This document shows positions 14,493 through 50,597 of a stretch of 64,000 bases of DNA, piece by piece. Position 1 is the first letter of the stretch. Every line of letters begins with the position of its first letter. The notes beneath the pieces were generated by a model. The model was not told the DNA's origin. It did not search any database and worked only from the letters and a program-made list of their open reading frames with translations. Position numbers and translations under genes: made by a program. The DNA lies in assembly GCF_055900595.2 (NCBI RefSeq), contig NZ_CM148325.1. One strand, given 5' to 3'.

Positions 14493-14596
14493 ACGTTCCT
14501 CCTTTATATGAACTCACCGGAGCAGGCTCCGGTGAGGTGTTGTGAACTTAAGTCTGGACGAAATGCCCGAAAACGAAAGTTTGAGGCGTAAAAAGC

Positions 14597-23800: not shown

Positions 23801-25129
23801 CTGAGAGATCCCCTCATAATTTCCCCAAAACGTAACCATGTGTGAATAGATTTTGAGTAAGCAGGGTTGCAGCCACGAGTGAGTCTTCCCTTGTTATTGT
23901 GTAGCCAGAATGCCGCAAAACTTCCATGCCTAAGCGAACTGTTGAGAGTACGTTTCGATTTCTGACTGTGTTAGCCTGGAAGTGCTTGTCCCAACCTTGT
24001 TTCTGAGCATGAACGCCCGCAAGCCAACATGTTAGTTGAAGCATCAGGGCGATTAGCAGCATGATATCAAAACGCTCTGAGCTGCTCGTTCGGCTATGGC
24101 GTAGGCCTAGTCCGTAGGCAGGACTTTTCAAGTCTCGGAAGGTTTCTTCAATCTGCATTCGCTTCGAATAGATATTAACAAGTTGTTTGGGTGTTCGAAT
24201 TTCAACAGGTAAGTTAGTTGCTAGAATCCATGGCTCCTTTGCCGACGCTGAGTAGATTTTAGGTGACGGGTGGTGACAATGAGTCCGTGTCGAGCGCTGA
24301 TTTTTTCGGCCTTTAGAGCGAGATTTATACAATAGAATTTGGCATGAGATTGGATTGCTTTTAGTCAGCCTCTTATAGCCTAAAGTCTTTGAGTGACTAG
24401 ATGACATATCATGTAAGTTGCTGATAGGTTTCCAGTTTTCCGCTCCTAGGTCTGCATATTGTACTTTTCCTCTTACTCGACTTAACCAGTACCAACCCAG
24501 CTTCTCAACGGATTTATACCATGGCACTTTAAAGCCAGCATCACTGACAATGAGCGGTGTGGTGTTACTCGGTAGAATGCTCGCAAGGTCGGCTAGAAAT
24601 TGGTCATGAGCTTTCTTTGAACATTGCTCTGAAAGCGGGAACGCTTTCTCATAAAGAGTAACAGAACGACCGTGTAGTGCGACTGAAGCTCGCAATACCA
24701 TAAGCCGTTTTTGCTCACGGATATCAGACCAGTCAACAAGTACAATGGGCATCGTATTGCCCGAACAGATAAAGCTAGCATGCCAACGGTATACAGCGAG
24801 TCGCTCTTTGTGGAGGTGACGATTACCTAACAATCGGTCGATTCGTTTGATGTTATGTTTTGTTCTCGCTTTGGTTGGCAGGTTACGGCCAAGTTCGGTA
24901 AGAGTGAGAGTTTTACAGTCAAGTAAGGCGTGGCAAGCCAACGTTAAGCTGTTGAGTCGTTTTAAGTGTAATTCGGGGCAGAATTGGTAAAGAGAGTCGT
25001 GTAAAATATCGAGTTCGCACATTTTGTTGTCTGATTATTGATTTTTGGCGAAACCATTTGATCATATGACAAGATGTGTATCCACCTTAACTTAATGATT
25101 TTTACCAAAATCATTAGGGGATTCATCAG
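23801..25129 (-). mobile_element. IS10 (IS4 family), complete 1329-bp copy
   Basis: Ends CTGAGAGATCCCCTCATAATTTCCCC (inside end, 23801) and CTGATGAATCCCCTAATGATTTTGG (outside end, reverse at 25129); contains the 402-aa transposase; 9-bp direct repeats flank it. Confidence 0.95.
23814..25022 (-). CDS. IS10 transposase
   Basis: 402-aa ORF MCELDILHDSLYQFCPELHLKRLNSLTLACHALLDCKTLTLTELGRNLPTK... recognised as IS10/Tn10 transposase. Confidence 0.95.
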   Translation of the reverse strand: MCELDILHDSLYQFCPELHLKRLNSLTLACHALLDCKTLTLTELGRNLPTKARTKHNIKRIDRLLGNRHLHKERLAVYRWHASFICSGNTMPIVLVDWSDIREQKRLMVLRASVALHGRSVTLYEKAFPLSEQCSKKAHDQFLADLASILPSNTTPLIVSDAGFKVPWYKSVEKLGWYWLSRVRGKVQYADLGAENWKPISNLHDMSSSHSKTLGYKRLTKSNPISCQILLYKSRSKGRKNQRSTRTHCHHPSPKIYSASAKEPWILATNLPVEIRTPKQLVNIYSKRMQIEETFRDLKSPAYGLGLRHSRTSSSERFDIMLLIALMLQLTCWLAGVHAQKQGWDKHFQANTVRNRNVLSTVRLGMEVLRHSGYTITREDSLVAATLLTQNLFTHGYVLGKL

Positions 25130-31056: not shown

Positions 31057-31550
31057 TGCGTATTTTAGTCTTAGGGGTTGGCAATATTTTGCTGACCGAT
31101 GAAGCCATCGGTGTGCGGATTGTCGAAGCGTTAGAGCAACGATATATTCTGCCAGATTATGTTGAGATCCTCGATGGCGGCACGGCGGGAATGGAGCTGC
31201 TTGGCGACATGGCAAATCGTGATCATCTGATCATTGCGGATGCCATTGTGTCGAAGAAGAGCGCGCCGGGAACGATGATGATCCTGCGGGATGAAGAAGT
31301 TCCGGCGTTGTTTACCAACAAAATCTCTCCGCATCAGCTTGGCCTGGCCGACGTATTGTCGGCCCTGCGCTTCACCGGTGAGTTTCCGAAAAAGCTGACC
31401 CTGGTCGGCGTGATCCCGGAATCGCTGGAGCCACACATCGGCTTAACGCCGACGGTTGAAGCAATGATTGAACCTGCGCTTGAGCATGTTCTGGCTGCGC
31501 TGCGCGAATCAGGCGTGGAAGCCATCCCACGGGAGGCGATTCATGACTGA
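31056..31550 (+). CDS. hybD: Hydrogenase-2 maturation endopeptidase HybD
   Basis: ATG overlaps the hybC stop (TAATG); MRILVLGVGNILLTDEAIG... 164 aa. Confidence 0.9.
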   Translation: MRILVLGVGNILLTDEAIGVRIVEALEQRYILPDYVEILDGGTAGMELLGDMANRDHLIIADAIVSKKSAPGTMMILRDEEVPALFTNKISPHQLGLADVLSALRFTGEFPKKLTLVGVIPESLEPHIGLTPTVEAMIEPALEHVLAALRESGVEAIPREAIHD

Positions 31551-32031
31551 AGAGATAGCAGGTTTCCAGACCTCCCCGAAGGCGCAAGTACAGGCAGCGT
31601 TTGAAGAAATTGCCCGGCGTTCGATGCACGATCTCTCTTTTCTGCATCCTTCAATGCCGGTGTATGTTTCTGACTTTACGCTGTTCGAAGGTCAGTGGAC
31701 GGGGTGTGTGATCACCCCGTGGATGCTGAGTGCGGTTATCTTCCCCGGCCCGGATCAACTCTGGCCACTGCGCAAAGTGAGTGAAAAAATTGGTCTGCAA
31801 CTGCCGTATGGCACCATGACCTTTACCGTTGGCGAACTGGACGGTGTTTCGCAATACCTCTCCTGCTCGCTGATGTCGCCGCTTTCGCACAGCATGTCGA
31901 TTGAAGAGGGCCAACGCCTGACGGATGACTGCGCACGAATGATCCTTTCGCTGCCAGTCACGAATCCGGATGTACCACACGCAGGGCGTCGCGCCCTGCT
32001 GTTTGGCCGCAGGAGTGGCGAAAATGCATGA
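31543..32031 (+). CDS. hybE: Hydrogenase-2 operon chaperone HybE
   Basis: ATG at 31543 (MTEEIAGFQTSPKAQ..., 162 aa), overlaps the hybD stop. Confidence 0.85.
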   Translation: MTEEIAGFQTSPKAQVQAAFEEIARRSMHDLSFLHPSMPVYVSDFTLFEGQWTGCVITPWMLSAVIFPGPDQLWPLRKVSEKIGLQLPYGTMTFTVGELDGVSQYLSCSLMSPLSHSMSIEEGQRLTDDCARMILSLPVTNPDVPHAGRRALLFGRRSGENA

Positions 32032-32365
32032 GTTGTCGCTTTGCCAGAGCGCCGTTGAAATTATCCAACGGCAGGCGGAGCAGCACGATGTTAAGCGCGT
32101 CACCGCCGTGTGGCTGGAAATTGGCGCGCTCTCCTGCGTTGAGGAGAGCGCCGTCCGTTTTAGTTTTGAAATTGTCTGCCACGGAACGGTGGCGCAAGGG
32201 TGCGATTTACATATCGTCTATAAACCCGCCCAGGCCTGGTGCTGGGATTGCAGCCAGGTGGTGGAGATTCATCAGCACGATGCGCAGTGTCCGCTCTGTC
32301 ATGGCGAGCGGTTGCGTGTCGATACCGGCGATTCGCTGATCGTCAAAAGTATTGAAGTTGAATAA
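32024..32365 (+). CDS. hybF: Hydrogenase nickel-insertion protein HybF (HypA paralogue)
   Basis: MHELSLCQSAVEII... with CxxC...CPxC zinc motif, 113 aa. Confidence 0.9.
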   Translation: MHELSLCQSAVEIIQRQAEQHDVKRVTAVWLEIGALSCVEESAVRFSFEIVCHGTVAQGCDLHIVYKPAQAWCWDCSQVVEIHQHDAQCPLCHGERLRVDTGDSLIVKSIEVE

Positions 32366-32377
32366 CCGGAGTTAACA

Positions 32378-32626
32378 ATGTGTATTGGCGTTCCAGGCCA
32401 GGTGCTGGCTGTCGGTGAAGATATTCACCAGCTTGCGCAGGTTGAAGTATGTGGTATCAAGCGCGACGTGAATATCGCCCTGATTTGTGAAGGTAACCCT
32501 GCCGATCTGCTGGGCCAGTGGGTGCTGGTACACGTCGGATTTGCCATGAGCATCATCGACGAAGATGAAGCCAAAGCCACATTAGACGCGCTGCGCCAAA
32601 TGGATTACGACATTACCAGCGCGTGA
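32378..32626 (+). CDS. hybG: Hydrogenase maturation factor HybG (HypC family)
   Basis: 82-aa ORF starting MCIGVPGQV (HypC N-terminal Cys2 motif). Confidence 0.9.
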
Positions 32627-32635
32627 TGATTAGCT

Positions 32636-32822
32636 TTCGTAGGCCTGATAAGACGCGACAGCGTCGCATCAGGCATTGTGCACGATTGCCGGATGCGGCG
32701 TGAACGCCTTATCCGGCCTACCGTTCGGGTGCCGATTGTAGGCCTGATAAGACGCGGCAGCGTCGCATCAGGCATTATGCACGATTGCCGGATGCGGCGT
32801 GAACGCCTTTTCCGGCCTACCT
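32636..32822. repeat. Tandem REP/BIME elements between convergent hybG and yghU
   Basis: Two near-identical ~85-bp units (GTAGGCCTGATAAGACGCG.CAGCGTCGCATCAGGCATT.TGCACGATTGCCGGATGCGGCGTGAACGCCTT.TCCGGCCTAC). Confidence 0.7.
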
Positions 32823-37627: not shown

Positions 37628-38320
37628 CTAGTGATAACCACGCGCGGTCATAAAATCCGTAATCGCTTTTTCTGCATCAACCAGCACCTTTTCCAGTGGC
37701 TGATTAGCATCGATATCAACCAGTTGTGCACCGCCAAAGGTTAACTGTGGCGTTATGGCAATCTTCCTCGCCAGCGATTCCCGTTTATGGTCGGGTTTAC
37801 GCGCGCAGGCAACTTCAAGGTCAACATTGAGTTTGATGACCAGATCAGGTTTATGGCTCGCCATCCAGTGAAACGCTTTACGTTCCTGGCTTGCCAGCCA
37901 TGAGACAAACCGGCCGCCTTCAACGTTAGGCGGGAACACTGTACCATCGTAAGCGCCAGGAATTTGGTCCTGAGGATAACGGTCGGTTAGAACAATTAAC
38001 CCGCGACGACGACAGGCAAGCATATGACGAAAGCGCAGTAAGCGACGGGCGACAAACGCTGTAATTACCAGCGCCGGAACTGGCCCAGGCAATTTTTTTG
38101 CTGTTTTCACCTGATTTCGTTCAATTGTTTTATGTAAGGATTTTCCCATCAACGGTAATTTTGTCACTGCACGACCGACATTTCCGGCCTGTTTTCCTAA
38201 ATGAACTCTTTCGGCAGCACCATATTTTTCGACAACGGTAATGAGATGTTCACACACCGTTGACTTGCCTGAACCATCGCTACCAATAACGGCAATTAAT
38301 GGAGGTGTTATTGACTGCAT
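37628..38320 (-). CDS. yghT: P-loop kinase-like protein YghT (thymidylate-kinase-like fold)
   Basis: 230-aa ORF; Walker [13 protein letters not shown]-type motif (LTDRYPQ); paralogous to the next two genes. Confidence 0.8.
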
Positions 38321-38493: not shown

Positions 38494-39207
38494 GTGAATC
38501 AACGTAATATGTCAATAATTAATTCCACGCCAGTGCGTGTTATTGCCATTGTAGGATGTGATGGTTCAGGTAAATCGACCCTCACGGCAAGCCTGGTAAA
38601 TGAACTGGCAGCAAGAATGCCAACAGAACACATTTATCTCGGGCAATCGTCCGGGCGAATTGGCGAATGGATTTCACAGCTCCCTGTTATTGGCGCACCT
38701 TTTGGGCGTTATTTGCGAAGTAAAGCGGCACATGTGCACGAAAAGCCCTTAACACCGCCTGGCAATATTACTGCGCTGGTTATCTATCTGCTTTCCTGCT
38801 GGCGGGCGTACAAGTTTCGCAAAATGTTGTGTAAAAGCCAGCAAGGCTATCTGCTCATCACCGACCGCTACCCGCAGGTTGAAGTGCCGGGTTTTCGCTT
38901 TGATGGCCCGCAATTGGCAAAAACCACGGGCGGTAACGGCTGGATAAAAATGTTAAGGCAGCGCGAGCTGAAGCTGTACCAATGGATGGCGTCTTATTTG
39001 CCCGTATTGTTGATTCGTCTTGGCATTGATGAACAAACCGCGTTTTCGCGTAAACCTGACCATCAACTGGCGGCGTTACAGGAAAAAATCGCCGTTACGC
39101 CGCAACTGACATTCAATGGCGCCGGGATCCTTGAACTGGATGGTCGGCAACCAGCCGATGAAATTATGCAAGCGTCACTACGCGCAATTCACGCCGCGCT
39201 TTCCTGA
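38494..39207 (+). CDS. yghS: P-loop kinase-like protein YghS
   Basis: 237-aa ORF; Walker A GCDGSGKST, ITDRYPQ; paralogue of YghT/YghR. Confidence 0.8.
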   Translation: MNQRNMSIINSTPVRVIAIVGCDGSGKSTLTASLVNELAARMPTEHIYLGQSSGRIGEWISQLPVIGAPFGRYLRSKAAHVHEKPLTPPGNITALVIYLLSCWRAYKFRKMLCKSQQGYLLITDRYPQVEVPGFRFDGPQLAKTTGGNGWIKMLRQRELKLYQWMASYLPVLLIRLGIDEQTAFSRKPDHQLAALQEKIAVTPQLTFNGAGILELDGRQPADEIMQASLRAIHAALS

Positions 39208-39238: not shown

Positions 39239-39997
39239 ATGGATGCACTACAAACACAAACTGTTAATAGTACAACCGTGCCGCAGCCCAACTACATTCC
39301 GGGGCTGATTGCGGTGGTCGGGTGTGATGGCACCGGTAAATCCACGCTGACCACCGACCTGGTGAAATCGCTGCAACAACACTGGCAAACCGAGCGCCGC
39401 TATTTGGGGCTGCTCTCCGGCGAAGACGGCGACAAAATCAAACGATTGCCGTTGGTTGGCGTCTGGCTGGAACGGCGACTGGCGGCCAAATCCTCGAAAA
39501 CCCAAAGCATGAAAACCAAATCTCCAGCGCTATGGGCGGCGGTGATTATGTACTGCTTCTCGCTGCGAAGAATGGCGAATCTACGCAAGGTTCAGCGACT
39601 GGCGCAAAGTGGCGTTCTGGTGGTCAGCGATCGCTTCCCGCAGGCTGAAATTTCGGGCTTTTATTATGACGGACCGGGGATTGGCGTCGAGCGCGCGACC
39701 GGGAAAATCAACCAATTTCTGGCGCAGCGCGAGCGACAGTTATACCAACAAATGGCGCAGTATCGTCCTGAATTAATCATTCGTTTGGGGATTGATATTG
39801 ATACTGCCATCTCCCGCAAGCCTGACCATGACTATGCCGAGCTGCAGGACAAAATCGGCGTCATGTCGACGATTGGCTATAACGGCACAAAAATTCTTGA
39901 GATTGATTCCAGAGCGCCCTACAGCGAAGTGCTGGAACAGGCACAGAAGGCGGTTTCTCTGGTTGCCATCGTTTCTGACCGCCGAAGTTTAACTTAA
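39239..39997 (+). CDS. yghR: P-loop kinase-like protein YghR
   Basis: 252-aa ORF; Walker A GCDGTGKST, VSDRFPQ; paralogue of YghS/YghT. Confidence 0.8.
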   Translation: MDALQTQTVNSTTVPQPNYIPGLIAVVGCDGTGKSTLTTDLVKSLQQHWQTERRYLGLLSGEDGDKIKRLPLVGVWLERRLAAKSSKTQSMKTKSPALWAAVIMYCFSLRRMANLRKVQRLAQSGVLVVSDRFPQAEISGFYYDGPGIGVERATGKINQFLAQRERQLYQQMAQYRPELIIRLGIDIDTAISRKPDHDYAELQDKIGVMSTIGYNGTKILEIDSRAPYSEVLEQAQKAVSLVAIVSDRRSLT

Positions 39998-40042: not shown

Positions 40043-41392
40043 TTGGCGGGTTTTAACATCAAACATTGGTTTGCAGATGGCGCGTTTCGCACCATTATTC
40101 GCAATAGCGCCTGGTTAGGCTCCAGTAATGTCGTGAGCGCTTTGCTGGGTCTGTTGGCGCTCTCGTGTGCCGGTAAAGGGATGACGCCCGCCATGTTTGG
40201 CGTACTGGTGATTGTGCAATCGTACGCCAAGTCGATCAGCGATTTTATTAAGTTTCAGACATGGCAGTTGGTGGTGCAGTACGGAACGCCAGCCTTGACC
40301 AACAATAATCCGCAGCAATTTCGCAATGTCGTCTCATTTTCCTTCTCGTTGGATATCGTCAGCGGCGCGGTGGCGATTGTCGGCGGCATTGCCTTACTCC
40401 CTTTTCTTTCCCATTCATTAGGTCTGGATGACCAAAGCTTTTGGCTGGCAGCGCTGTATTGCACGCTCATTCCTTCAATGGCTTCCTCCACGCCGACCGG
40501 CATTCTGCGTGCGGTAGATAGCTTCGACTTAATTGCTGTACAGCAGGCGACGAAACCTTTTCTGCGCGCAGCGGGGAGCGTCGTTGCCTGGTATTTTGAC
40601 TTTGGTTTTGCGGGTTTTGTTATTGCCTGGTACGCCTCGAATCTTGTTGGCGGCACCATGTACTGGTGGTTTGCCGCACGTGAATTACGCCGCAGAAATA
40701 TCCATAACGCGTTCAAATTGAATCTGTTTGAGTCTGCCCGACACATCAAAGGCGCGTGGAGTTTTGTCTGGTCAACCAACATTGCCCATTCCATCTGGTC
40801 GGCGCGTAATTCGTGCAGCACAGTGTTGGTGGGGATCGTGTTAGGACCCGCTGCCGCCGGGTTATTTAAAATCGCCATGACATTCTTCGACGCCGCCGGA
40901 ACGCCAGCGGGTTTACTAGGTAAAAGTTTTTACCCAGAGGTGATGCGTTTAGATCCGCGCACCACCAGACCGTGGTTGTTAGGCGTGAAGTCCGGTTTAC
41001 TGGCGGGCGGAATCGGTATTCTGGTGGCGCTCGCGGTGTTGATCGTCGGCAAGCCGCTCATTTCGCTGGTGTTTGGCGTTAAGTATCTCGAAGCGTATGA
41101 CCTGATTCAGGTGATGCTGGGCGCAATTGTGATTTCGATGCTGGGCTTCCCACAGGAGTCATTGCTATTGATGGCGGGAAAACAGCGTGCTTTTCTCGTG
41201 GCGCAAACCATCGCCTCAATCGGCTACATCGTATTGCTGTTCATGTTCTGTCATCTGTTTGGCGTGCTGGGGGCTGCATTTGCTTACTTCGCTGGGCAAT
41301 GTCTGGATGTGGTGCTCTCGCTAATTCCAACCTTAAAGGCATTTTTTCAGCGCCATTCCTTGCTTTATAACGCAGCCGGAGAGAAATCCTGA
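40043..41392 (+). CDS. yghQ: Polytopic membrane protein YghQ (MOP/Wzx-like flippase family), full length here
   Basis: 449-aa ORF with about 12 predicted TM helices; TTG start as given by the ORF track (true start uncertain); stop overlaps the next ORF (TGATG). Confidence 0.75.
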   Translation: MAGFNIKHWFADGAFRTIIRNSAWLGSSNVVSALLGLLALSCAGKGMTPAMFGVLVIVQSYAKSISDFIKFQTWQLVVQYGTPALTNNNPQQFRNVVSFSFSLDIVSGAVAIVGGIALLPFLSHSLGLDDQSFWLAALYCTLIPSMASSTPTGILRAVDSFDLIAVQQATKPFLRAAGSVVAWYFDFGFAGFVIAWYASNLVGGTMYWWFAARELRRRNIHNAFKLNLFESARHIKGAWSFVWSTNIAHSIWSARNSCSTVLVGIVLGPAAAGLFKIAMTFFDAAGTPAGLLGKSFYPEVMRLDPRTTRPWLLGVKSGLLAGGIGILVALAVLIVGKPLISLVFGVKYLEAYDLIQVMLGAIVISMLGFPQESLLLMAGKQRAFLVAQTIASIGYIVLLFMFCHLFGVLGAAFAYFAGQCLDVVLSLIPTLKAFFQRHSLLYNAAGEKS

Positions 41393-42228
41393 TGATGAGA
41401 AAATATTTCCCGCTTGAGGCTAGCGAGCGTCTATTTGTTGCGATTGAAGAAGATGATGTCGTTGATGCACAGGTCAGTTTGCCGCCGACTATCGCACTAA
41501 GTTGTACCACCGAAATCATCCATGATAATTACGCGTTATGCCTGAAATTCTGGCTGGATGGTGTTAATCGTCAGGAGCTACTGCGTTTAATCCGCAAACA
41601 GGCGAAAGGCGATGAGCTGACGACAGACGAGCGCAAAAAGTATAAATACATGCGAGCGCGCTACAAGCATCTGCGCTTTGCGCAACGGCTGTATTTAAAG
41701 AAGCATCAGGCCGGATTTTTATTCGGCAAAACGACCGTTTTTTTGGGGCGTTTTCAGGACGGCTTTCGTAACGGTAAGAAAAATATTGTGTCGTATTACG
41801 GCAACCTGTTACGGGTTTATTTAAGCTCTCCGGTCTGGTCGTTGGTGAACTATTCATTACGCCATAGCCAGTTAGAAAGCGTAAGCGGTTTTATTGCCTA
41901 TCGGCAAAAGCAAATGCATACCCTGAAAGAGATAATTGCCAAACCGCGACTAACTGGCAGGGAATTTCATGATGTGCGAAAAATCATCAGCCAGCAGGTT
42001 TCTTATTACGACACCCTAAGATCGCTTGATCCTGAAAATAAAGAGGCGTTACAGATTTCCCGCTTCCTCGCCGCCATTAATGGCCTGATGGGGGATAAAC
42101 ACGACGACATGGTGGCGGATGATATGGAAAACCGCCAGTCGTATGATGCACCGATGGCGCTGGATAGCGATATTCGTCAGCGCTTAGAACTGCTGATTTC
42201 GCGTTTCCCACTCTATCCGGAGCAATAA
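41392..42228 (+). CDS. Hypothetical soluble protein (278 aa), coupled to yghQ
   Basis: Start overlaps the yghQ stop; stop overlaps the next start (TAATG); no motif recognised by eye. Confidence 0.6.
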   Translation: MMRKYFPLEASERLFVAIEEDDVVDAQVSLPPTIALSCTTEIIHDNYALCLKFWLDGVNRQELLRLIRKQAKGDELTTDERKKYKYMRARYKHLRFAQRLYLKKHQAGFLFGKTTVFLGRFQDGFRNGKKNIVSYYGNLLRVYLSSPVWSLVNYSLRHSQLESVSGFIAYRQKQMHTLKEIIAKPRLTGREFHDVRKIISQQVSYYDTLRSLDPENKEALQISRFLAAINGLMGDKHDDMVADDMENRQSYDAPMALDSDIRQRLELLISRFPLYPEQ

Positions 42229-42788
42229 TGCCATCTCGTTGGATTTTCGCTCTGATCATCGCACTCTTAGCGCCAGGCGCGGTGGCACACAATTTCGTCA
42301 CTGGTAAAACGGTTACCCCTGTTTATATCCAGGAAGGCGGTGAGTTGCTTCTGAATAGCGACGACGAAATTCACTACCAAAAGTGGAACAGCACACAGCT
42401 GGCGGGAAAAGTCCGCATTATTCAGTATATCGCCGGGCGTAAGTCGGCGAAGAAAAAGAACTCACTGTTAATTAAAGCGGTTGAAGCGGCAAACTTTCCG
42501 CAGGATCGTTTTCAGCCCACCACCATTGTGAACACCGATGATGCCATCTTTGGTACCGACTATTTTGTCGTTGGCAAAATCGAAAAAAATAAACGCCGCT
42601 ATCCATGGGCGCAATTCGTTATTGACGGCAATGGACAGGGACGTGTTGCCTGGCGCTTGCCGGAGCAGAGTTCAACCATTCTGGTGCTGAATAAAAACGG
42701 GCAAATTCAGTGGGCAAAGGACGGCAGCCTGACGCCGGAAGAGGTAGATCATGTCATTGCGCTGGCGCAGAAGCTGATCAATGAATAA
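42228..42788 (+). CDS. Secreted/periplasmic protein (186 aa), possibly YtfJ-like
   Basis: Cleavable signal peptide MPSRWIFALIIALLAPGAVAHN; translationally coupled to the upstream ORF. Confidence 0.6.
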   Translation: MPSRWIFALIIALLAPGAVAHNFVTGKTVTPVYIQEGGELLLNSDDEIHYQKWNSTQLAGKVRIIQYIAGRKSAKKKNSLLIKAVEAANFPQDRFQPTTIVNTDDAIFGTDYFVVGKIEKNKRRYPWAQFVIDGNGQGRVAWRLPEQSSTILVLNKNGQIQWAKDGSLTPEEVDHVIALAQKLINE

Positions 42789-42818
42789 AAAACTCAAAGG
42801 ATTGAGGGCGTTAGTGAG

Positions 42819-43889
42819 ATGAAGCTGGTTGAACACTACATCATGCGTGGTACGCGCCGTCTGGTGCTGATTATCGTCGGTTTTCTGATCTTTATTTTCG
42901 CCAGCTACTCCGCACAGCGTTATCTGACCGAAGCGGCAAATGGGACATTAGCTCTTGATGTTGTGCTGGATATCGTTTTCTACAAAGTGCTGATTGCACT
43001 GGAGATGCTGTTACCTGTTGGACTATATGCTTCAGTTGGCGTGACGCTAGGGCAAATGTATACCGACTCGGAAATTACCGCTATCTCCGCGGCGGGGGGC
43101 AGTCCGGGACGCTTGTACAAAGCCGTTCTTTATCTGGCGATACCGCTAAGTATTTTTGTCACCCTTCTGTCGATGTATGGTCGTCCGTGGGCTTATGCGC
43201 AGATTTATCAACTGGAGCAACAGTCACAGTCGGAGCTGGATGTTCGCCAGTTGCGGGCAAAGAAATTTAACACTAACGATAACGGACGAATGATCCTTTC
43301 GCAGACGGTTGATCAGGATAATAATCGCCTGACTGACGCGCTGATTTATACTTCTACTGCCAATCGAACCCGCATTTTCCGCGCCCGTTCGGTTGATGTG
43401 GTTGACCCATCACCTGAGAAACCGACCGTTATGTTGCATAACGGGACCGCCTATCTTCTCGATCATCAGGGGCGTGACGACAACGAACAGATCTACCGTA
43501 ATCTGCAATTACATCTGAATCCGCTGGATCAAAGCCCTAACGTCAAACGCAAAGCAAAATCGGTCACGGAGCTGGCGCGCTCCGCCTTTCCTGCCGATCA
43601 TGCCGAACTGCAATGGCGACAAAGCCGTGGCCTGACAGCATTGTTGATGGCGCTGCTGGCCATTTCATTAAGTCGGGTAAAACCGCGGCAAGGGCGATTT
43701 TCAACGTTATTGCCACTGACGTTGCTGTTTATTGCCATTTTTTATGGCGGCGACGTCTGCCGTACGCTGGTGGCTAACGGCGCGATTCCCCTCATTCCTG
43801 GTTTGTGGTTAGTACCCGGACTCATGCTAATGGGCCTGCTGATGCTGGTCGCACGCGACTTCTCTTTGCTGCAGAAATTTTCCCGATGA
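42819..43889 (+). CDS. LptF/LptG-family (YjgP/YjgQ) permease paralogue, first of a pair
   Basis: 356-aa ORF with N-terminal MKLVEHYIMRGTRRLVLIIVGFLIFIF resembling LptF/LptG; predicted TM helices flanking a periplasmic domain. Confidence 0.7.
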   Translation: MKLVEHYIMRGTRRLVLIIVGFLIFIFASYSAQRYLTEAANGTLALDVVLDIVFYKVLIALEMLLPVGLYASVGVTLGQMYTDSEITAISAAGGSPGRLYKAVLYLAIPLSIFVTLLSMYGRPWAYAQIYQLEQQSQSELDVRQLRAKKFNTNDNGRMILSQTVDQDNNRLTDALIYTSTANRTRIFRARSVDVVDPSPEKPTVMLHNGTAYLLDHQGRDDNEQIYRNLQLHLNPLDQSPNVKRKAKSVTELARSAFPADHAELQWRQSRGLTALLMALLAISLSRVKPRQGRFSTLLPLTLLFIAIFYGGDVCRTLVANGAIPLIPGLWLVPGLMLMGLLMLVARDFSLLQKFSR

Positions 43890-44965
43890 ATGTTTTCAGC
43901 CGCTATTTAATCCGTCATCTCTTTCTCGGTTTTGCCGCCGCCGCAGGGCTATTGCTGCCGCTTTTTACCACCTTCAACCTGATTAACGAACTGGATGATG
44001 TCGGCCCGGGCGGTTATCGCTGGACCCAGGCGGTGCTGGTGGTGCTGATGACCTTACCGCGCACACTGGTCGAACTTTCGCCGTTTATCGCCTTATTGGG
44101 AGGGATTGTCGGCCTGGGGCAACTATCGAAAAACAGTGAGCTTACCGCCATTCGCAGCACGGGGTTTTCTATCTTCCGTATTGCACTGGTGGCGCTGGTT
44201 GCCGGGATATTGTGGACTGTTTCGTTAGGCGCGATAGATGAGTGGGTGGCGTCGCCATTGCAGCAACAGGCGCTGCAAATCAAATCGACTGCCACCGCGT
44301 TGGGGGAGGACGATGACATTACCGGCAATATGCTTTGGGCCAGGCGCGGTAATGAATTTGTGACGGTGAAATCGCTGAACGAGCAGGGCCAGCCTGTGGG
44401 CGTGGAGATATTTCATTATCGCGACGATCTCTCGCTCGAATCCTACATTTTTGCACGCAGTGCCTCCATTGAAGACGACAAAACATGGATCCTGCATGGT
44501 GTGAATCATAAAAAATGGTTGAATGGCAAAGAAACGCTGGAAACATCAGATAATCTTACCTGGCAATCGGCCTTCACCAGTATGAATCTTGAAGAGTTAT
44601 CGATGCCGGGAAATACTTTTTCTGTCCGTCAACTTAATCATTACATCCATTATTTGCAGGAAACTGGGCAACCCAGCAGCGAATACCGCCTTGCACTGTG
44701 GGAAAAACTGGGACAACCCATCCTGACCCTGGCGATGATTTTGCTGGCTGTGCCGTTTACCTTTAGTGCCCCGCGTTCGCCTGGGATGGGTAGCCGTCTC
44801 GCTGTAGGCGTCATCGTGGGCTTACTTACCTGGATCAGCTATCAAATCATGGTCAATCTGGGATTGCTATTTGCGTTGAGCGCACCTGTTACCGCGCTCG
44901 GTTTACCGGTAGCGTTTGTGCTGGTGGCGTTGAGCCTGGTGTATTGGTATGACAGACAACATTAA
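43886..44965 (+). CDS. LptF/LptG-family (YjgP/YjgQ) permease paralogue, second of a pair
   Basis: ATG at 43886 overlaps the upstream stop (ATGA); MNVFSRYLIRHLFLGFAAAAGLLLPLFT... typical LptG-like N-terminus; 359 aa. Confidence 0.7.
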   Translation: MNVFSRYLIRHLFLGFAAAAGLLLPLFTTFNLINELDDVGPGGYRWTQAVLVVLMTLPRTLVELSPFIALLGGIVGLGQLSKNSELTAIRSTGFSIFRIALVALVAGILWTVSLGAIDEWVASPLQQQALQIKSTATALGEDDDITGNMLWARRGNEFVTVKSLNEQGQPVGVEIFHYRDDLSLESYIFARSASIEDDKTWILHGVNHKKWLNGKETLETSDNLTWQSAFTSMNLEELSMPGNTFSVRQLNHYIHYLQETGQPSSEYRLALWEKLGQPILTLAMILLAVPFTFSAPRSPGMGSRLAVGVIVGLLTWISYQIMVNLGLLFALSAPVTALGLPVAFVLVALSLVYWYDRQH

Positions 44966-44999
44966 ACCCGCCGTGGCGCAACACCACAGCGGGCTCACA

Positions 45000-46172
45000 T
45001 TACTGCTTCAGAGTAGCGAACGCTTGAATGATGGCATCAATTTGCTCACGACTGTGGGCAGCGTTTACGCTACAGCGCAGCAGCGTGATGCCTGCAGGCG
45101 CGGCAGGTGGCAGGATAAGATTCACATAAACGCCCAGCGAAATAAGCTCGCGCCAGATGCGTAAACCTTCCTCTTTCGAACCGATTATTACTGGCACTAC
45201 CGGGCTAATATGTGAACTTAACTCATAATCCAGTTTTTGCAGACCGTCATACAGATGGTTGGCATTATCCATCAGCTTTTGCCGCAACTCTGGTTGTGAG
45301 GCAATGGTTCTTAACGACGAGCGCACGGTCGCAATGCAGGACGGAGAAGGAGAGGCGGTAAAAATATACGGGCGGCTGCCGTAGCGCAACACTTCCATCG
45401 CTTCCGAACCGACAGCAAAACCGCCAATCGAGGCCAGACTTTTACTGAAGGTACCAACGATAATATCCACATCATCTTCAACGCCAACGGCTTCAGCCAG
45501 TCCGCGCCCCGTTGCGCCTAACACGCCAAACGAATGCGCTTCATCGACAATCAAATAACCACCGAGACGACGTTTGATATCAACAATTTCCGCCAGCGGC
45601 GCAACGTCACCGAGCATACTGTAGATGCCTTCAACGATGATAATCGCCTCTTTTGCCCGTTCACCGAGGCGAACCATGCGCCGTTCCAGATCTTTAGCAT
45701 CGTTATGGCGGAAACGAATAATTTCCGCGCCACCGAGAGAACAGGCGTCATAAATACTGGCGTGGCTGTCGGCATCCAGTAACACCACGGCGTTATGGTC
45801 GGCAAGTGCGCTGATGACGCCTAAATTAGCGGTATAACCGGTTGAAAAAACGATAGCGGTAGGGCGATTAAAAAACTCGGCGATCTCTTTCTCTAACGCC
45901 AGATGCGGCGCATAACTGCCGTTTGCCATACGAGAACCGGTGGTGCCGGTGCCTTGGGCCGCTAACGCTGCCTGACCTTCGGCGATGGCATCATGATTAA
46001 AGGTTAAACCGAGATAATTATTGGTCCCGGCCAGAATCACTTTTTTATTGCCGATCCGACCTTCGGTGGCGGAATACACTTCATCAATACAGGTGCCAAA
46101 CGGTGTTAACCCGTTGTCACTAAATTGCAGTCGCTCGCCAGCAAGGCGCGCATATTTATCGTATAGCCCCAT
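45000..46172 (-). CDS. PLP-dependent alpha-oxoamine synthase, serine-palmitoyltransferase-like
   Basis: 390-aa ORF with PLP-lysine motif GTFSKSLASIGG and DEAHSFG motif characteristic of SPT/KBL/BioF enzymes. Confidence 0.8.
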   Translation of the reverse strand: MGLYDKYARLAGERLQFSDNGLTPFGTCIDEVYSATEGRIGNKKVILAGTNNYLGLTFNHDAIAEGQAALAAQGTGTTGSRMANGSYAPHLALEKEIAEFFNRPTAIVFSTGYTANLGVISALADHNAVVLLDADSHASIYDACSLGGAEIIRFRHNDAKDLERRMVRLGERAKEAIIIVEGIYSMLGDVAPLAEIVDIKRRLGGYLIVDEAHSFGVLGATGRGLAEAVGVEDDVDIIVGTFSKSLASIGGFAVGSEAMEVLRYGSRPYIFTASPSPSCIATVRSSLRTIASQPELRQKLMDNANHLYDGLQKLDYELSSHISPVVPVIIGSKEEGLRIWRELISLGVYVNLILPPAAPAGITLLRCSVNAAHSREQIDAIIQAFATLKQ

Positions 46173-46420
46173 TATTTATTCTCCAGCCATGGAAGTAGTG
46201 TTTCCATTAATTGCGCAGGGGTTTTGACATCCAGCAGAATATTAATAGGAATGGAAATATCGAATCTGTCTTCCAGCATCATTAAGAGATCCATCACTTT
46301 GATCGACTCCAGGCCAAGATCGTTGACGAGATCGCTGTCGGGCTTAATTTCCACACCGTTTTCGACCAAATCCTGTAAACAGGAAAGGATGTAATCCATT
46401 ACTATTTCACGATTTACCAT
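46172..46420 (-). CDS. Dedicated acyl carrier protein
   Basis: 82-aa acidic ORF with phosphopantetheine-site motif DLGLESI; stop overlaps the SPT-like gene start. Confidence 0.75.
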   Translation of the reverse strand: MVNREIVMDYILSCLQDLVENGVEIKPDSDLVNDLGLESIKVMDLLMMLEDRFDISIPINILLDVKTPAQLMETLLPWLENK

Positions 46421-46451
46421 AGAAACGTTAACACACCTTTAAACAAGACAA

Positions 46452-47366
46452 TCAAAATAGCCCGTTGCGTAATGCGTGTTCCAGGCTAATCCCGGGAAAC
46501 CAATTAATATCTTCAGAAATACGGTTATTACTTGCTGACCAGTCGGCGTGGGTTAATTCACGGATTTTCGAGCGGGTCAGCATAGGTTCTTTACCTGCCA
46601 GGCGACTCAACGCGGTACTGATATCCGCAAGGCAGGTGAGTACCGACAGAGGAATACCAACCATTCGAACGGAACCGCAACGGGCGTCGGCGGCAAGTTG
46701 CTGTACGCGTTGCCAGTCATAGCCGCCGGCGACGCCATCGCATAATTCATAGGTTTGCGTCTGTACAGTTTCGGCGCTTAACCACTGCCCCACGGCTTGC
46801 GCGAAATCGGTGACGTGCAGGAAAGAGAGCTGTGTATCTGGCGCACCAAGTCGTGGCAGCAGGCCGCGCAGCATCCAGTCAAACAGCGGTTTTAACTCTT
46901 TATCGCCGGGACCATACACGGCTGTCGGGCGAAAAATGCCCAGCGTAATTTCGTCAGCCATTGCGGTCAGTCGTTGTTCGGCGACGTGTTTGGAATTTGC
47001 GTACCAGGAGAGTTCGGGATGACGCGCCGCCAGCGAAGAGATAAACAGAAAACGTTGGCAAAAGCCGCTCTCTTTTGCCGCTTGCATCAGGCGCAGGCTG
47101 CCGTCAACGTTACAGCGGGTAAAAATCTCTTCTTTGTGTCCGCGCACTTGTCCGGCGCAATGGACCACCGCGCTGGCTCCGGCAACCAGTTCGCTAAGCG
47201 AATGTGTATCTTCCAGCGAACCGCGCACCCAGATGAGATTATCATTGACGTGAGCGCGGGCAGTACGCGTCAATGCGCGAACGTGAAAGCCGCGGGCGAG
47301 CAGGTTATCGATAATATATTTACCGATAAACCCGGTAGCGCCCGTCACCGCGACAGTTTGATTCAT
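46452..47366 (-). CDS. NAD(P)-dependent epimerase/dehydratase-family reductase (extended SDR)
   Basis: 304-aa ORF with Rossmann motif VTGATGFIGKYI and YxxxK motif (YANSK); start overlaps the FAAL stop (ATGA). Confidence 0.75.
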   Translation of the reverse strand: MNQTVAVTGATGFIGKYIIDNLLARGFHVRALTRTARAHVNDNLIWVRGSLEDTHSLSELVAGASAVVHCAGQVRGHKEEIFTRCNVDGSLRLMQAAKESGFCQRFLFISSLAARHPELSWYANSKHVAEQRLTAMADEITLGIFRPTAVYGPGDKELKPLFDWMLRGLLPRLGAPDTQLSFLHVTDFAQAVGQWLSAETVQTQTYELCDGVAGGYDWQRVQQLAADARCGSVRMVGIPLSVLTCLADISTALSRLAGKEPMLTRSKIRELTHADWSASNNRISEDINWFPGISLEHALRNGLF

Positions 47367-49084
47367 GCCAGGGATTCCTGCACATGAAGGCTTGCAGCAT
47401 AAGCCTTCTGATAACGTTTTTTCGCTTCCGCACGGGCAGGCTTGCCGGAGGACGTTCGGGGAATACTGTGGGGCGGCAACAGATCGATAGCCGCGGTTAC
47501 GCCAAATTCGCTTTGGATCCGTGCTGCCAGTGCGTGGATAAGCTGCCCACGACGTTCTTCGTCGCTGATCCTACACTGGATCTGCAGAATGATTTTTTCC
47601 TGGGCGGTAACAAAAGCAATCGCATCGCCAGAATGAATTTCCGGTTCCTGTTCCGCAATATATTCAATATCCTGCGGCCAGATATTACGGCCACGAATAA
47701 TAATCAGATCTTTAATGCGTCCGGTGACATACAGATAACCGTCCAGCAGATAACCGAGGTCGCCGGTATCTAACCAGCCCGTCGCGGCAATCTCGTCTTG
47801 CGAAACCTGGTCGCCAAAGTAACCGCTCATCAGGCTGGGGCCGGAGATGCAAATATGGCCTACCACACGTTCCGCGACCGGCATACCTGCTTCATTGCGG
47901 ATTTCAATGCCATGTTCCGGCAACGCTTTACCGCAGTTGACGAAAGTCGATACGGCGCGTGTTTCAGCACCCGGCGCGACGGCTTTGCCCTGATATTCAA
48001 GGATGTCGCGATCCACTTCGTTAACCACAACCCCGGAGGCTTCATCAGAGAAGCTGACAGCCAGCGCATTTTCTGCCAGTCCGTAGCACGGCATGAACGT
48101 TTTATCGTCAAAGTTAACCTGACGGAAACATTCAGCGAATTGATGGAGTTGTTCTGCGGAGATGGGTTCTGCACCAATACCAGCGACGCGCCAGCAGGAA
48201 AGATCCAGTTCAGCGAGATCTTTTTCATTCACGCGGCGCTGGCACAATTCATAGCCAAACGGCGGCGCAACGGAAACGGTGCCGCGATTTTTACTGATCA
48301 ATTTAAGCCATTGCAGAGGACGCATGGCAAAATCCTGAGTGCGCAAATAATCTACTGAAAGCTGCGTGGCGACGGGGGTCAGGAGAAAGCCGACCAGTCC
48401 CATATCATGGTAGAAAGGCAGCCAGGAGACGCAGCGGTCGCCAGGGCGTAATTTAATGCCATCGTGGCTTATAGCACGTAGATTAGCCATCACTTCGCGA
48501 TGGGTGATAATGACGCCACGGGGAAAACGGGTGCTGCCGGAGGTGTACTGGAGGTAGGCGATATCGTTCGGAACTGGATGCTGGAGTGCAACATCGGCTT
48601 CCGGTAATGCCTTAAACCAGGCGTGGCTTAAAACATGTAATTCGGGGTTGTTATGCGTAGCGGCATTGACCAGTGGCAACCACTCATCACCAGTGATAAT
48701 GGCTGCGGGCTGGCAACTTGCCAGTAAACCCTGCAGTTTGGCGCTCCAGGAATCCCGCTGACCGATGCCCATTGGAATCGCCAACGGGACGGCGACTAAG
48801 CCGGCATACTGGCAGGAAAAAAAAGCCTCTACGAACCCGCTACTGGTTTCGGCAATCAGCGCCACGCGATCGCCTTTTTTCAGGTTCAGCGATAACAACC
48901 GCTTCGCACCAGCTTCGGCACGCGCTTTTAACGTCTGATATTCCAGTTGATCTTCAAGTTGGCAACGTCTGTCATAAAAATTCATTCCGGCGCTACTCAG
49001 AGCGGCGTAGTCCAAAGCATCAACCAGCGTTGGAAAATCGGCATAGCGCATAGGTAGGGAATGCGTAAAGATTTTATTAGACAT
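47363..49084 (-). CDS. Fatty acyl-AMP ligase / acyl-ACP synthetase (FAAL-type adenylating enzyme)
   Basis: Start set at ATG 49084 (MSNKIFTHSLPMRYADFPTL...; the ORF track's 49111 start is TTG); AMP-binding motif YTSGSTRFPRGV resembling FadD32-type FAALs. Confidence 0.8.
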   Translation of the reverse strand: MSNKIFTHSLPMRYADFPTLVDALDYAALSSAGMNFYDRRCQLEDQLEYQTLKARAEAGAKRLLSLNLKKGDRVALIAETSSGFVEAFFSCQYAGLVAVPLAIPMGIGQRDSWSAKLQGLLASCQPAAIITGDEWLPLVNAATHNNPELHVLSHAWFKALPEADVALQHPVPNDIAYLQYTSGSTRFPRGVIITHREVMANLRAISHDGIKLRPGDRCVSWLPFYHDMGLVGFLLTPVATQLSVDYLRTQDFAMRPLQWLKLISKNRGTVSVAPPFGYELCQRRVNEKDLAELDLSCWRVAGIGAEPISAEQLHQFAECFRQVNFDDKTFMPCYGLAENALAVSFSDEASGVVVNEVDRDILEYQGKAVAPGAETRAVSTFVNCGKALPEHGIEIRNEAGMPVAERVVGHICISGPSLMSGYFGDQVSQDEIAATGWLDTGDLGYLLDGYLYVTGRIKDLIIIRGRNIWPQDIEYIAEQEPEIHSGDAIAFVTAQEKIILQIQCRISDEERRGQLIHALAARIQSEFGVTAAIDLLPPHSIPRTSSGKPARAEAKKRYQKAYAASLHVQESLA

Positions 49085-49454
49085 ATACACCACGAAAAAA
49101 TTGGATATCAAAAATAAAATGACAATAATGCGGTGGATTATATAGGCATAAAAGATAAATGAGATAGTATTTTCATCAGTGTGAAAATGAACATTGATTT
49201 AAATAATGAGTTTGAGTTTTTTGTTTTTATTGTGAATGATATTTAATTTATGAATGTATTAAGAAGAAGCCTTGTCCGGTCGCCTTAAATCGACAAAAGG
49301 CATTGTGGCGCTTCTGTGTAGTCTCTGACCTTATCGTAATCATTAATAAATGCTATTTATTCGTCGTTTGTATTCATTGGGTTGATTATTAAGGTGCCGT
49401 TCGTTGCTGTTGCAACCTGTTTGTCACCGTTAATTATTTGTTACCCACAGAACT
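49085..49454. promoter_or_regulatory. AT-rich divergent intergenic region (probable promoters for the FAAL operon and yghO)
   Basis: 370 bp of strongly AT-rich sequence with poly-A/T tracts between divergent genes; no individual promoter element is called. Confidence 0.4.
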
Positions 49455-50597
49455 ATGGAATGCGATCTGCTGATGATTAAAATTGAAAAAGTAATTAATA
49501 AAAATGACCTTAAGGCATTTATCGCTTTTCCGTCATCACTTTATCCCGACGATCCAAACTGGATACCCCCTTTATTCATTGAACGCAACGAGCATTTGTC
49601 TGCGAAAAATCCGGGGACGGACCATATCATCTGGCAGGCGTGGGTGGCAAAAAAAGCCGGGCAGATAGTTGGGCGAATTACCGCGCAAATCGATACCTTG
49701 CACCGTGAGCGTTACGGTGAAGATACCGGTCATTTCGGCATGATTGACGCCATTGATGATCCGCAGGTTTTTGCCGCGTTGTTTGGCGCAGCGGAAGCGT
49801 GGTTGAAGTCACAAGGTGCAAGTAAGATCAGCGGTCCTTTCAGCCTGAATATCAATCAGGAAAGCGGATTACTGATTGAAGGTTTCGATACACCACCCTG
49901 TGCGATGATGCCGCACGGTAAACCGTGGTATGCCGCGCATATTGAACAATTGGGTTATCACAAAGGCATTGATTTACTAGCGTGGTGGATGCAGCGAACC
50001 GATCTCACTTTCTCTCCGGCGCTAAAAAAACTGATGGATCAGGTGCGTAAGAAGGTGACCATTCGCTGCATCAATCGCCAGCGGTTTGCCGAAGAGATGC
50101 AGATCCTGCGTGAGATTTTCAACTCTGGCTGGCAGCACAACTGGGGATTTGTGCCGTTTACCGAACATGAATTCGCGACTATGGGCGATCAACTTAAATA
50201 TCTGGTGCCGGACGATATGATCTACATCGCTGAGATTGATTCTGCACCCTGCGCGTTTATTGTTGGCTTGCCAAACATCAACGAGGCGATTGCCGATCTG
50301 AACGGATCGCTCTTTCCCTTCGGCTGGGCAAAATTGCTGTGGCGTTTAAAAGTCAGCGGTGTGCGAACTGCGCGAGTACCGCTGATGGGCGTGCGGGACG
50401 AGTATCAGTTTAGCCGCATCGGCCCGGTGATTGCGCTGTTATTGATTGAAGCCTTACGCGATCCGTTTGCCCGCCGGAAGATCGATGCGCTGGAAATGTC
50501 ATGGATCCTCGAAACCAATACAGGCATGAATAACATGCTGGAACGCATTGGGGCAGAGCCGTACAAGCGTTACCGATTGTATGAAAAGCAGATTTGA
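49455..50597 (+). CDS. yghO: YghO, acyl-CoA N-acyltransferase-like protein, apparently full length
   Basis: 380-aa ORF (alternative start at ATG 49473); recognised as the full-length counterpart of the K-12 yghO remnant. Confidence 0.7.
   Translation: MECDLLMIKIEKVINKNDLKAFIAFPSSLYPDDPNWIPPLFIERNEHLSAKNPGTDHIIWQAWVAKKAGQIVGRITAQIDTLHRERYGEDTGHFGMIDAIDDPQVFAALFGAAEAWLKSQGASKISGPFSLNINQESGLLIEGFDTPPCAMMPHGKPWYAAHIEQLGYHKGIDLLAWWMQRTDLTFSPALKKLMDQVRKKVTIRCINRQRFAEEMQILREIFNSGWQHNWGFVPFTEHEFATMGDQLKYLVPDDMIYIAEIDSAPCAFIVGLPNINEAIADLNGSLFPFGWAKLLWRLKVSGVRTARVPLMGVRDEYQFSRIGPVIALLLIEALRDPFARRKIDALEMSWILETNTGMNNMLERIGAEPYKRYRLYEKQI

Follow-up and report, generated by a model that had tools for sequence, protein, structure and literature searches.

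The closest described relatives of the locus analyzed here are a sphingolipid gene cluster of Caulobacter crescentus, comprising CC_1162-CC_1165 and CC_1154 (CCNA_01220-01223, bCerS), and the genes ECD_02850-02854 of Escherichia coli BL21(DE3) (yghO/aca, aasR, epi, acpR and spt; PMC9386255). The locus itself is a four-gene operon, aasR-cerR(epi)-acpR-spt, at positions 45000-49084 on the minus strand of a 64,000-nt stretch of RefSeq contig NZ_CM148325.1 (assembly GCF_055900595.2). This whole stretch is referred to as the window, and positions are numbered along it. The operon encodes a fatty acyl-AMP ligase (FAAL; AasR), an extended short-chain dehydrogenase/reductase (SDR), an acyl carrier protein (ACP; AcpR), and a pyridoxal phosphate (PLP)-dependent alpha-oxoamine synthase (Spt). 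Together, these genes very probably constitute the core of the bacterial ("rhodobacterial") sphingolipid pathway.

Padilla-Gomez et al. (2022) cloned the E. coli genes and found that the AasR/AcpR/Spt system makes 3-oxo-sphinganine, which ECD_02854 forms from L-serine and an acyl-thioester (PMC9386255). ACPs of the AcpR type carry 4'-phosphopantetheine, the E. coli serine palmitoyltransferase (SPT; here SPTEc) prefers acyl-AcpR over acyl-coenzyme A (CoA), and the E. coli ligase, AasREc, functions in vivo with its own AcpR and not with that of Caulobacter (PMC9386255). Acylation of AcpREc by AasREc is implied by in vivo co-expression, and the direct test of CoA was carried out with the Caulobacter enzyme (PMC9386255). 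Earlier reviews cited in the same paper had grouped the SPT of E. coli B with rhodobacterial SPTs.

The BL21(DE3) genes lie at this very locus, flanked by glcC and yghQRST/pitB. Their order and overlaps are identical, and the window differs from them only by strain-level substitutions. Identities are 98.2% for AasR (ECD_02851), 97.0% for the SDR (ECD_02852), 100% for AcpR (ECD_02853, which shares the accession WP_000248097.1), 99.0% for Spt (ECD_02854), and 99.7% for the divergently encoded YghO (ECD_02850). An earlier note on this DNA, made from its letters alone, had implied that the operon was new. This was not borne out: the BL21(DE3) orthologues, 97-100% identical, were cloned and assayed as AasR, AcpR, and Spt in PMC9386255, and RefSeq already annotates the synthase gene as 'spt: serine palmitoyltransferase'. 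The remaining RefSeq labels are fatty acyl-AMP ligase (aasR), NAD-dependent epimerase/dehydratase family protein (SDR gene), and acyl carrier protein (acpR). The operon and its biochemistry are already known, and the window agrees throughout with the published system, in which the AasR and Spt steps are shown for near-identical proteins (PMC9386255).

The Caulobacter cluster has the same order, spt-acpR-epi/cerR-aasR, and likewise has an N-acyltransferase, LptF2/LptG2, and a flippase encoded nearby. Its mechanism is also as in E. coli, running from free fatty acid through acyl-AcpR to condensation with serine. The proteins of the two species are just 34-53% identical, with values of 53, 41, 34, 42, and 44% in the five-gene comparison against CC_1162-1165 and CC_1154 (PMC9386255 Table S2, the source of all Caulobacter identities given here). 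The clusters also differ in content. Homologues of the Caulobacter head-group genes CpgABC, among them the LCB5-type ceramide kinase CpgB, were not found in the E. coli cluster, nor was LptC2 identified there, which is part of the Caulobacter cluster. Unlike Caulobacter, the E. coli cluster includes YghR/S/T, a trio of P-loop kinase-like paralogues, as well as a 278-aa hypothetical protein and a YtfJ-like protein. The earlier note had proposed a Caulobacter-type enzyme set; the shared gene order agrees with this, and each functional assignment that could be checked was correct.

The four minus-strand genes it described are borne out by intact open reading frames (ORFs) and by family matches, and all the motifs quoted with them are found in the translations: YTSGSTRFPRGV, GATGFIG, YANSK, DLGLESI, GTFSKSLASIGG, and DEAHSFG. 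Tight coupling through overlaps, which had also been claimed, holds in part. The aasR stop and the SDR gene start overlap as ATGA, and the acpR stop and spt start share 1 nt (TAATG), whereas the SDR gene and acpR do not overlap and are separated by a 31-nt spacer with an AAAGGTG ribosome-binding site. In Hafnia and Erwinia the two genes are likewise 30-31 nt apart.

The identification of Spt as a bacterial SPT is well supported, and its activity in the window protein is predicted from sequence. Spt scores 595.8 bits (E = 2.9e-179) on NF047599, the curated NCBI SPT equivalog model of the beta-proteobacterial type (cut-off 500). This is the sole SPT model whose cut-off it exceeds, a point of difference from the Sphingomonas SPTs; it reaches 426 of 670 bits on the alpha-proteobacterial model and 337 of 640 on the Cytophaga-Flavobacterium-Bacteroides (CFB) model. 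Profile and structure comparison against BioF, Kbl, and CqsA had been named beforehand as the test of an SPT-type synthase, and Spt sides with the SPTs. Its scores are 333.3 bits on TIGR00858 (BioF; cut-off 426.45), 294.4 bits on NF005394 (Kbl; cut-off 460), and 218.9 bits on NF005526 (CqsA-type autoinducer synthase; cut-off 428). Among solved structures, Sphingomonas SPTs lead with 372 bits, Kbl and BioF reach at most 199, CqsA reaches 122, and a cysteate acyltransferase is detectable at 201.6. CqsA, BioF, and Kbl share fold type I PLP chemistry with Spt, but with all three below their cut-offs and well below the SPT scores, these identities are ruled out for the synthase.

Spt is 46.6% identical to the SPT of Sphingomonas paucimobilis (SpSPT) over 382 aligned residues. 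Residues H137, D210, H213, K244, and R366 of Spt align with H159, D231, H234, K265, and R390 of SpSPT, and all five are conserved. We take K265 to be the lysine that forms the PLP Schiff base, H159, D231, and H234 to be the PLP-binding set, and R390 to be the family arginine. In this PLP lysine and H/D/H/R catalytic set, Spt is like the solved SPTs of S. paucimobilis and S. wittichii (PDB 2JG2, 2X8U).

AasR is supported as a FAAL that would load the dedicated AcpR rather than CoA. It scores 874.7 bits (E = 2.4e-263) on the FAAL model NF006624 (cut-off 600) and just 101 bits on the FadD model NF006523. Over its full length of 573 residues it is ~99% identical to EcFAAL (PDB 3PBK), and AasR and EcFAAL are therefore the same protein. 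A CoA ligase of fatty-acid degradation, which the earlier note had set as the finding that would count against its proposal, is excluded by the FadD score and the 3PBK identity. EcFAAL has been co-crystallised with lauroyl- (C12) and myristoyl-adenylate (C14) (PMC11837247). It loads an E. coli ACP ('EcACP') in vitro, and FAALs reject CoA (PMC8460268). The word 'sphingolipid' occurs zero times in these two EcFAAL papers, so that the structural and sphingolipid literatures on this protein seem unconnected; 'AasR' is also missing from PMC11837247. One E. coli protein thus appears to have been described under two names, AasR and EcFAAL, without cross-reference.

Three start sites are available to aasR. 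The longest ORF begins at TTG 49111, ATG 49084 gives 573 aa, and the RefSeq start at 49051 gives 562 aa. A THSLPMRYADF stretch, whose THSLP lies upstream of the RefSeq methionine, is conserved in both Erwinia and Hafnia; SNKIF opens the 3PBK construct. Because of this conservation and the construct start, ATG 49084 is the better choice.

AcpR carries its phosphopantetheine serine at Ser39, within DLGLES. Against ACP models it scores 22-36 bits, under every curated housekeeping-ACP cut-off. It is a small phosphopantetheine-binding protein encoded directly upstream of spt, the features by which an AcpR is recognised.

The SDR contains GATGFIG (residues 9-15), which corresponds to the NAD(P)-binding motif GxxGxxG, and YANSK (residue 122), which corresponds to the catalytic YxxxK. 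It matches the Pfam families Epimerase, NmrA, and NAD_binding_10, and complex I 39-kDa/NDUFA9 subunits are among its closest solved relatives by sequence. A relationship to NDUFA9 has been published for Caulobacter CerR (PMC11087976), and the SDR is 34% identical to CC_1164 (E = 7e-38; PMC9386255 Table S2). These matches and motifs agree with the Caulobacter-like reductase that the earlier note had read here, and the SDR is presumed to be an ortholog-type CerR acting as the 3-keto reductase of the pathway.

Divergent from the operon lies yghO, the presumed fifth gene of the dihydroceramide set. YghO gave no match in Pfam, NCBIfam, or PDB sequence searches. An AlphaFold (AF2) model built from 119 diverse homologues has a predicted local distance difference test (pLDDT) score of 97.4 and a tandem GNAT fold, and its top Foldseek matches are tandem GNAT proteins (2WPW, 7Q3A, 5KF1, MshD, and Eis; E = 1e-16 to 1e-9). 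The modeled fold fits an N-acyltransferase and contradicts the K-12 annotation of YghO as a 'putative DNA-binding transcriptional regulator'. YghO is 44% identical to CC_1154 (E = 1e-107; PMC9386255 Table S2), and PMC9386255 places yghO and the E. coli SDR as orthologues of the Caulobacter N-acyltransferase and ceramide reductase that 'might' encode these activities. YghO is 80-87% identical between Enterobacterales genera, and the SDR is less conserved (65-72%). The YghO start is probably ATG 49473, not 49455, because orthologues are 374 aa long. Distant homologues of YghO (45-50% identity) adjoin LptF/LptG paralogues on two metagenome contigs (L008 59-4296; L009 2473-7560). Both contigs also encode an NTP_transf_3 nucleotidyltransferase, and L009 a fatty-acid hydroxylase and a metallophosphoesterase.

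In the pathway proposed for these proteins, AasR would adenylate a free long-chain fatty acid and load it onto the phosphopantetheine arm of holo-AcpR, bypassing CoA. Spt would then condense acyl-AcpR with L-serine, giving 3-oxo-sphinganine and CO2. YghO may add the second acyl chain by N-acylation of the base, and the NDUFA9-like SDR may reduce the 3-keto group to give dihydroceramide. We infer these two steps from homology to genes on which ceramide synthesis depends in Caulobacter; their order is disputed in Caulobacter itself (PMC9386255, PMC11087976). The lipid would probably reach the outer membrane through the flippase-like YghQ, LptF2/LptG2, and the products of other convergent genes, a step suggested by the gene neighborhood.

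To our knowledge, no sphingolipid native to E. coli has been described. This weighs against the proposed pathway, as do several more specific points. In the alignment, Leu354 of Spt stands at the position of SpSPT Arg378, which is reported to contact the serine carboxylate in the external aldimine. Leu354 does not prevent activity, since L-[14C]serine was the substrate in published assays of the 99%-identical enzyme. The SDR N-terminus, MNQTVAVTGATGFIG, leads directly into the Rossmann motif, and no signal peptide is apparent, whereas Caulobacter CerR has been reported to be periplasmic (PMC11087976). The 'EcACP' loaded by EcFAAL in PMC8460268 may differ in sequence from the window AcpR. The roles of the SDR and YghO are homology-based, and 'might' is as far as PMC9386255 goes in wording them; the products in that paper were identified mainly by co-migration in thin-layer chromatography. 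BL21(DE3), which has the cluster on its chromosome, showed no 3-oxo-sphinganine with empty vectors or single over-expressed genes (PMC9386255).

This last result also speaks for the alternative that survives best, although it is unlikely: that the cluster is cryptic, its enzymes working when over-expressed while the operon is never usefully expressed and sphingolipids play no part in E. coli biology. The BL21(DE3) cultures were grown in LB at 30 °C (PMC9386255), a medium in which the chromosomal copy seems to be silent, and a 2023 review (PMC10191378) includes no E. coli sphingolipid, with detection largely in Bacteroidota and some alpha-proteobacteria. The presumed control region also has a composition typical of silenced loci, which would be consistent with silencing here. 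GC content is 0.32 across the 370-bp gap between aasR and yghO (49085-49454), and 1-kb composition windows there give ~0.42. A scan upstream of aasR for consensus promoters found no minus-strand sigma-70 match.

The distribution of the operon speaks on both sides of this alternative. A match to a 4.6-kb query is present in 4213 of 5426 complete E. coli genomes and covers at least 80% of the query in 4061 of them. The operon is thus found intact in ~75% of complete genomes and is missing from about a quarter. In the window, which is E. coli DNA, it lies between glcC-yghO and yghQRST-pitB, and positions 44900-49500 are 100% identical to E. coli strain KY 1497. In K-12 MG1655 the operon has been lost through a deletion associated with IS5, with an IS5 element in place of exactly 41112-49494 (8.4 kb). 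The deletion takes part of yghQ, the 278-aa gene, the ytfJ-like gene, lptF2, lptG2, the four operon genes, and the first 40 nt of yghO; K-12 shows no obvious handicap from losing the operon. The expectation in the earlier note that K-12 would lack the lipid accords with this deletion. A mobile or plasmid-borne origin was considered and rejected. All four matches in a plasmid collection are non-mobilizable (three E. coli records, two of them chromosome-sized and the third of 354 kb, and a Rahnella replicon of 468 kb), GC content is ordinary, and the operon is chromosomal.

Against a cryptic cluster stand the signs of selection. Relative to BL21(DE3), the ratio of non-synonymous to synonymous substitution rates (dN/dS) is 0.0-0.13 for the four operon genes and 0.0-0.15 for all nine genes tested, indicating strong purifying selection. 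Genera of the Enterobacterales share the complete gene set, with YghO as close between genera as noted above. Purifying selection and cross-genus conservation together argue that the cluster is used somewhere.

A second alternative accepts that the operon is used and gives it a different native amino-lipid, with Spt taking glycine, alanine, or cysteate to form a deoxy-sphingoid or sulfonolipid-type base. Bacterial SPTs accept non-cognate amino acids (review PMC10191378), the Arg378-to-Leu difference falls at a reported serine contact, and a cysteate acyltransferase is among the detectable relatives. Spt passes the SPT equivalog model, however, and the solved SPTs are far ahead of the cysteate enzyme (372 versus 201.6 bits), making this reading quite improbable. 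A CqsA/LqsA-like module for an alpha-hydroxyketone autoinducer, which the earlier note had named as the nearest alternative, has the same PLP fold type, an acyl-thioester substrate, and a detectable relative in CqsA in its favor, but it is refuted by the model and structure scores above and by the published assays, no cqsS-like sensor lies nearby, and it deserves almost no credence. Just as little can be given to a module in which a paralogue of BioF or Kbl works with a CoA ligase of fatty-acid degradation: BioF and Kbl are the next-best families after SPT, but Spt is below both cut-offs, and the ligase is the structurally defined EcFAAL, of a family that rejects CoA (PMC8460268).

The sphingolipid operon is accompanied by neighbors that appear to belong with it (Table 1). 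Some 75% of complete E. coli genomes, K-12 not among them, have genes for an entire ceramide-type pathway and also for second copies of the lipopolysaccharide (LPS)-exporter permeases, while textbooks name just three membrane lipids for this species. The SPT-type character of the E. coli genes was recognised years ago, their biochemistry was described in 2022, and the crystal structure of the ligase is more than a decade old. What is still of interest is the native lipid, so far unobserved, together with the putative export and modification genes conserved alongside the operon.

Table 1. Features of the sphingolipid operon and its surroundings in the window.
Feature	Position	Strand	Size or basis
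aasR, fatty acyl-AMP ligase / specialised acyl-ACP synthetase (EcFAAL)	47363-49084	minus	573 aa from ATG 49084
cerR/epi, NDUFA9-like extended SDR, presumed pathway 3-keto reductase	46452-47366	minus	304 aa
acpR, specialised acyl carrier protein	46172-46420	minus	82 aa
spt, serine palmitoyltransferase, PLP-dependent alpha-oxoamine synthase	45000-46172	minus	390 aa
yghO, predicted tandem-GNAT N-acyltransferase, presumed aca/bCerS orthologue and fifth dihydroceramide gene	49473-50597	plus	AF2 model, Foldseek, CC_1154 identity
AT-rich divergent intergenic region aasR/yghO, presumed control region	49085-49472		
GC-rich hairpin, 16 paired positions, between convergent spt and lptG2	44963-44997		terminator-like scan and sequence
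lptG2, second LPS-export permease copy	43886-44965	plus	TIGR04408, 307.2 bits
lptF2, second LPS-export permease copy	42819-43889	plus	TIGR04407, 317.5 bits
YtfJ-family protein	42228-42788	plus	family match
278-aa hypothetical protein	41392-42228	plus	no family
yghQ, full-length, MOP-type flippase	40043-41392	plus	family match
yghR, P-loop kinase-like	39239-39997	plus	fold model and family matches
yghS, P-loop kinase-like	38494-39207	plus	paralogue of yghR/yghT
yghT, P-loop kinase-like	37628-38320	minus	paralogue of yghR/yghS

The operon, yghO, yghT/S/R/Q, the 278-aa gene, the ytfJ-like gene, lptF2, and lptG2 look like one functional unit of ~13 genes. The full neighbor set from yghT to lptG2 stays with the operon in Hafnia alvei (L006 12441-20016), and in Erwinia (L007 12418-19971) its gene content is kept with the order rearranged. 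We know of no sphingolipid of the kind such a unit would make from any enterobacterium. It is possible, though doubtful, that under particular conditions the unit makes a sphingolipid in most E. coli and many Enterobacterales, its head group perhaps phosphorylated by YghR/S/T, and delivers it to the outer membrane by a dedicated Lpt-like route. The Caulobacter sphingolipid cluster holds LptC2/F2/G2 and a flippase, which have been proposed to act in sphingolipid transport (PMC11324152). By analogy, lptF2 and lptG2 are candidate sphingolipid exporters, and YghQRST, the YtfJ-like protein, and the 278-aa protein may have roles in modification or export. The 278-aa protein had no match in Pfam or NCBIfam searches.

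YghR, YghS, and YghT are 31-40% identical to one another and share invariant GxDGxGKST, DRYPQ, YDG, and RKPDH motifs. The YghR model shows a P-loop nucleoside monophosphate (NMP)-kinase-like fold in which residues 55-100 form an insertion modeled at low confidence. RefSeq calls YghS/T 'dTMP kinase', an unsupported over-annotation, because YghR/S/T score 25-32 bits against a cut-off of 83. Homology to the Caulobacter ceramide kinase CpgB was likewise rejected, CpgB being of the LCB5/diacylglycerol-kinase type and YghR/S/T being P-loop NMP-kinase-like.

Other genes adjoin the yghO homologue in related genera, neither of them present at the E. coli locus. In Hafnia it is an Sfp-type phosphopantetheinyl transferase (PF17837 and PF01648; L006 6011-6736), and in Erwinia a prokaryotic diacylglycerol kinase (L007 5944-6303). 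At the other end of the operon, the hairpin between spt and lptG2 is the probable shared terminator of the two convergent genes, judging by its pairing and position; a clear T-run is absent from it.

Elsewhere in the window, 23801-25129 is a 1.3-kb insertion relative to KY 1497, between yghX and yghW. It contains a 402-aa ORF on the minus strand (23814-25022) and a match to Rfam RNA-OUT (25015-25084, 97.3 bits), and looks like an IS10-type element. The stretch 31321-32817 holds a copy of the IS3-family element IS1397, also present in KY 1497, and after it two or three naRNA4/repetitive extragenic palindromic (REP)-type repeats (32642-32817). Rfam matches to known E. coli small RNAs, unrelated to the operon, are ES173 at 14531-14594 (99 bits) and C0719 at 58061-58282 (294.5 bits).

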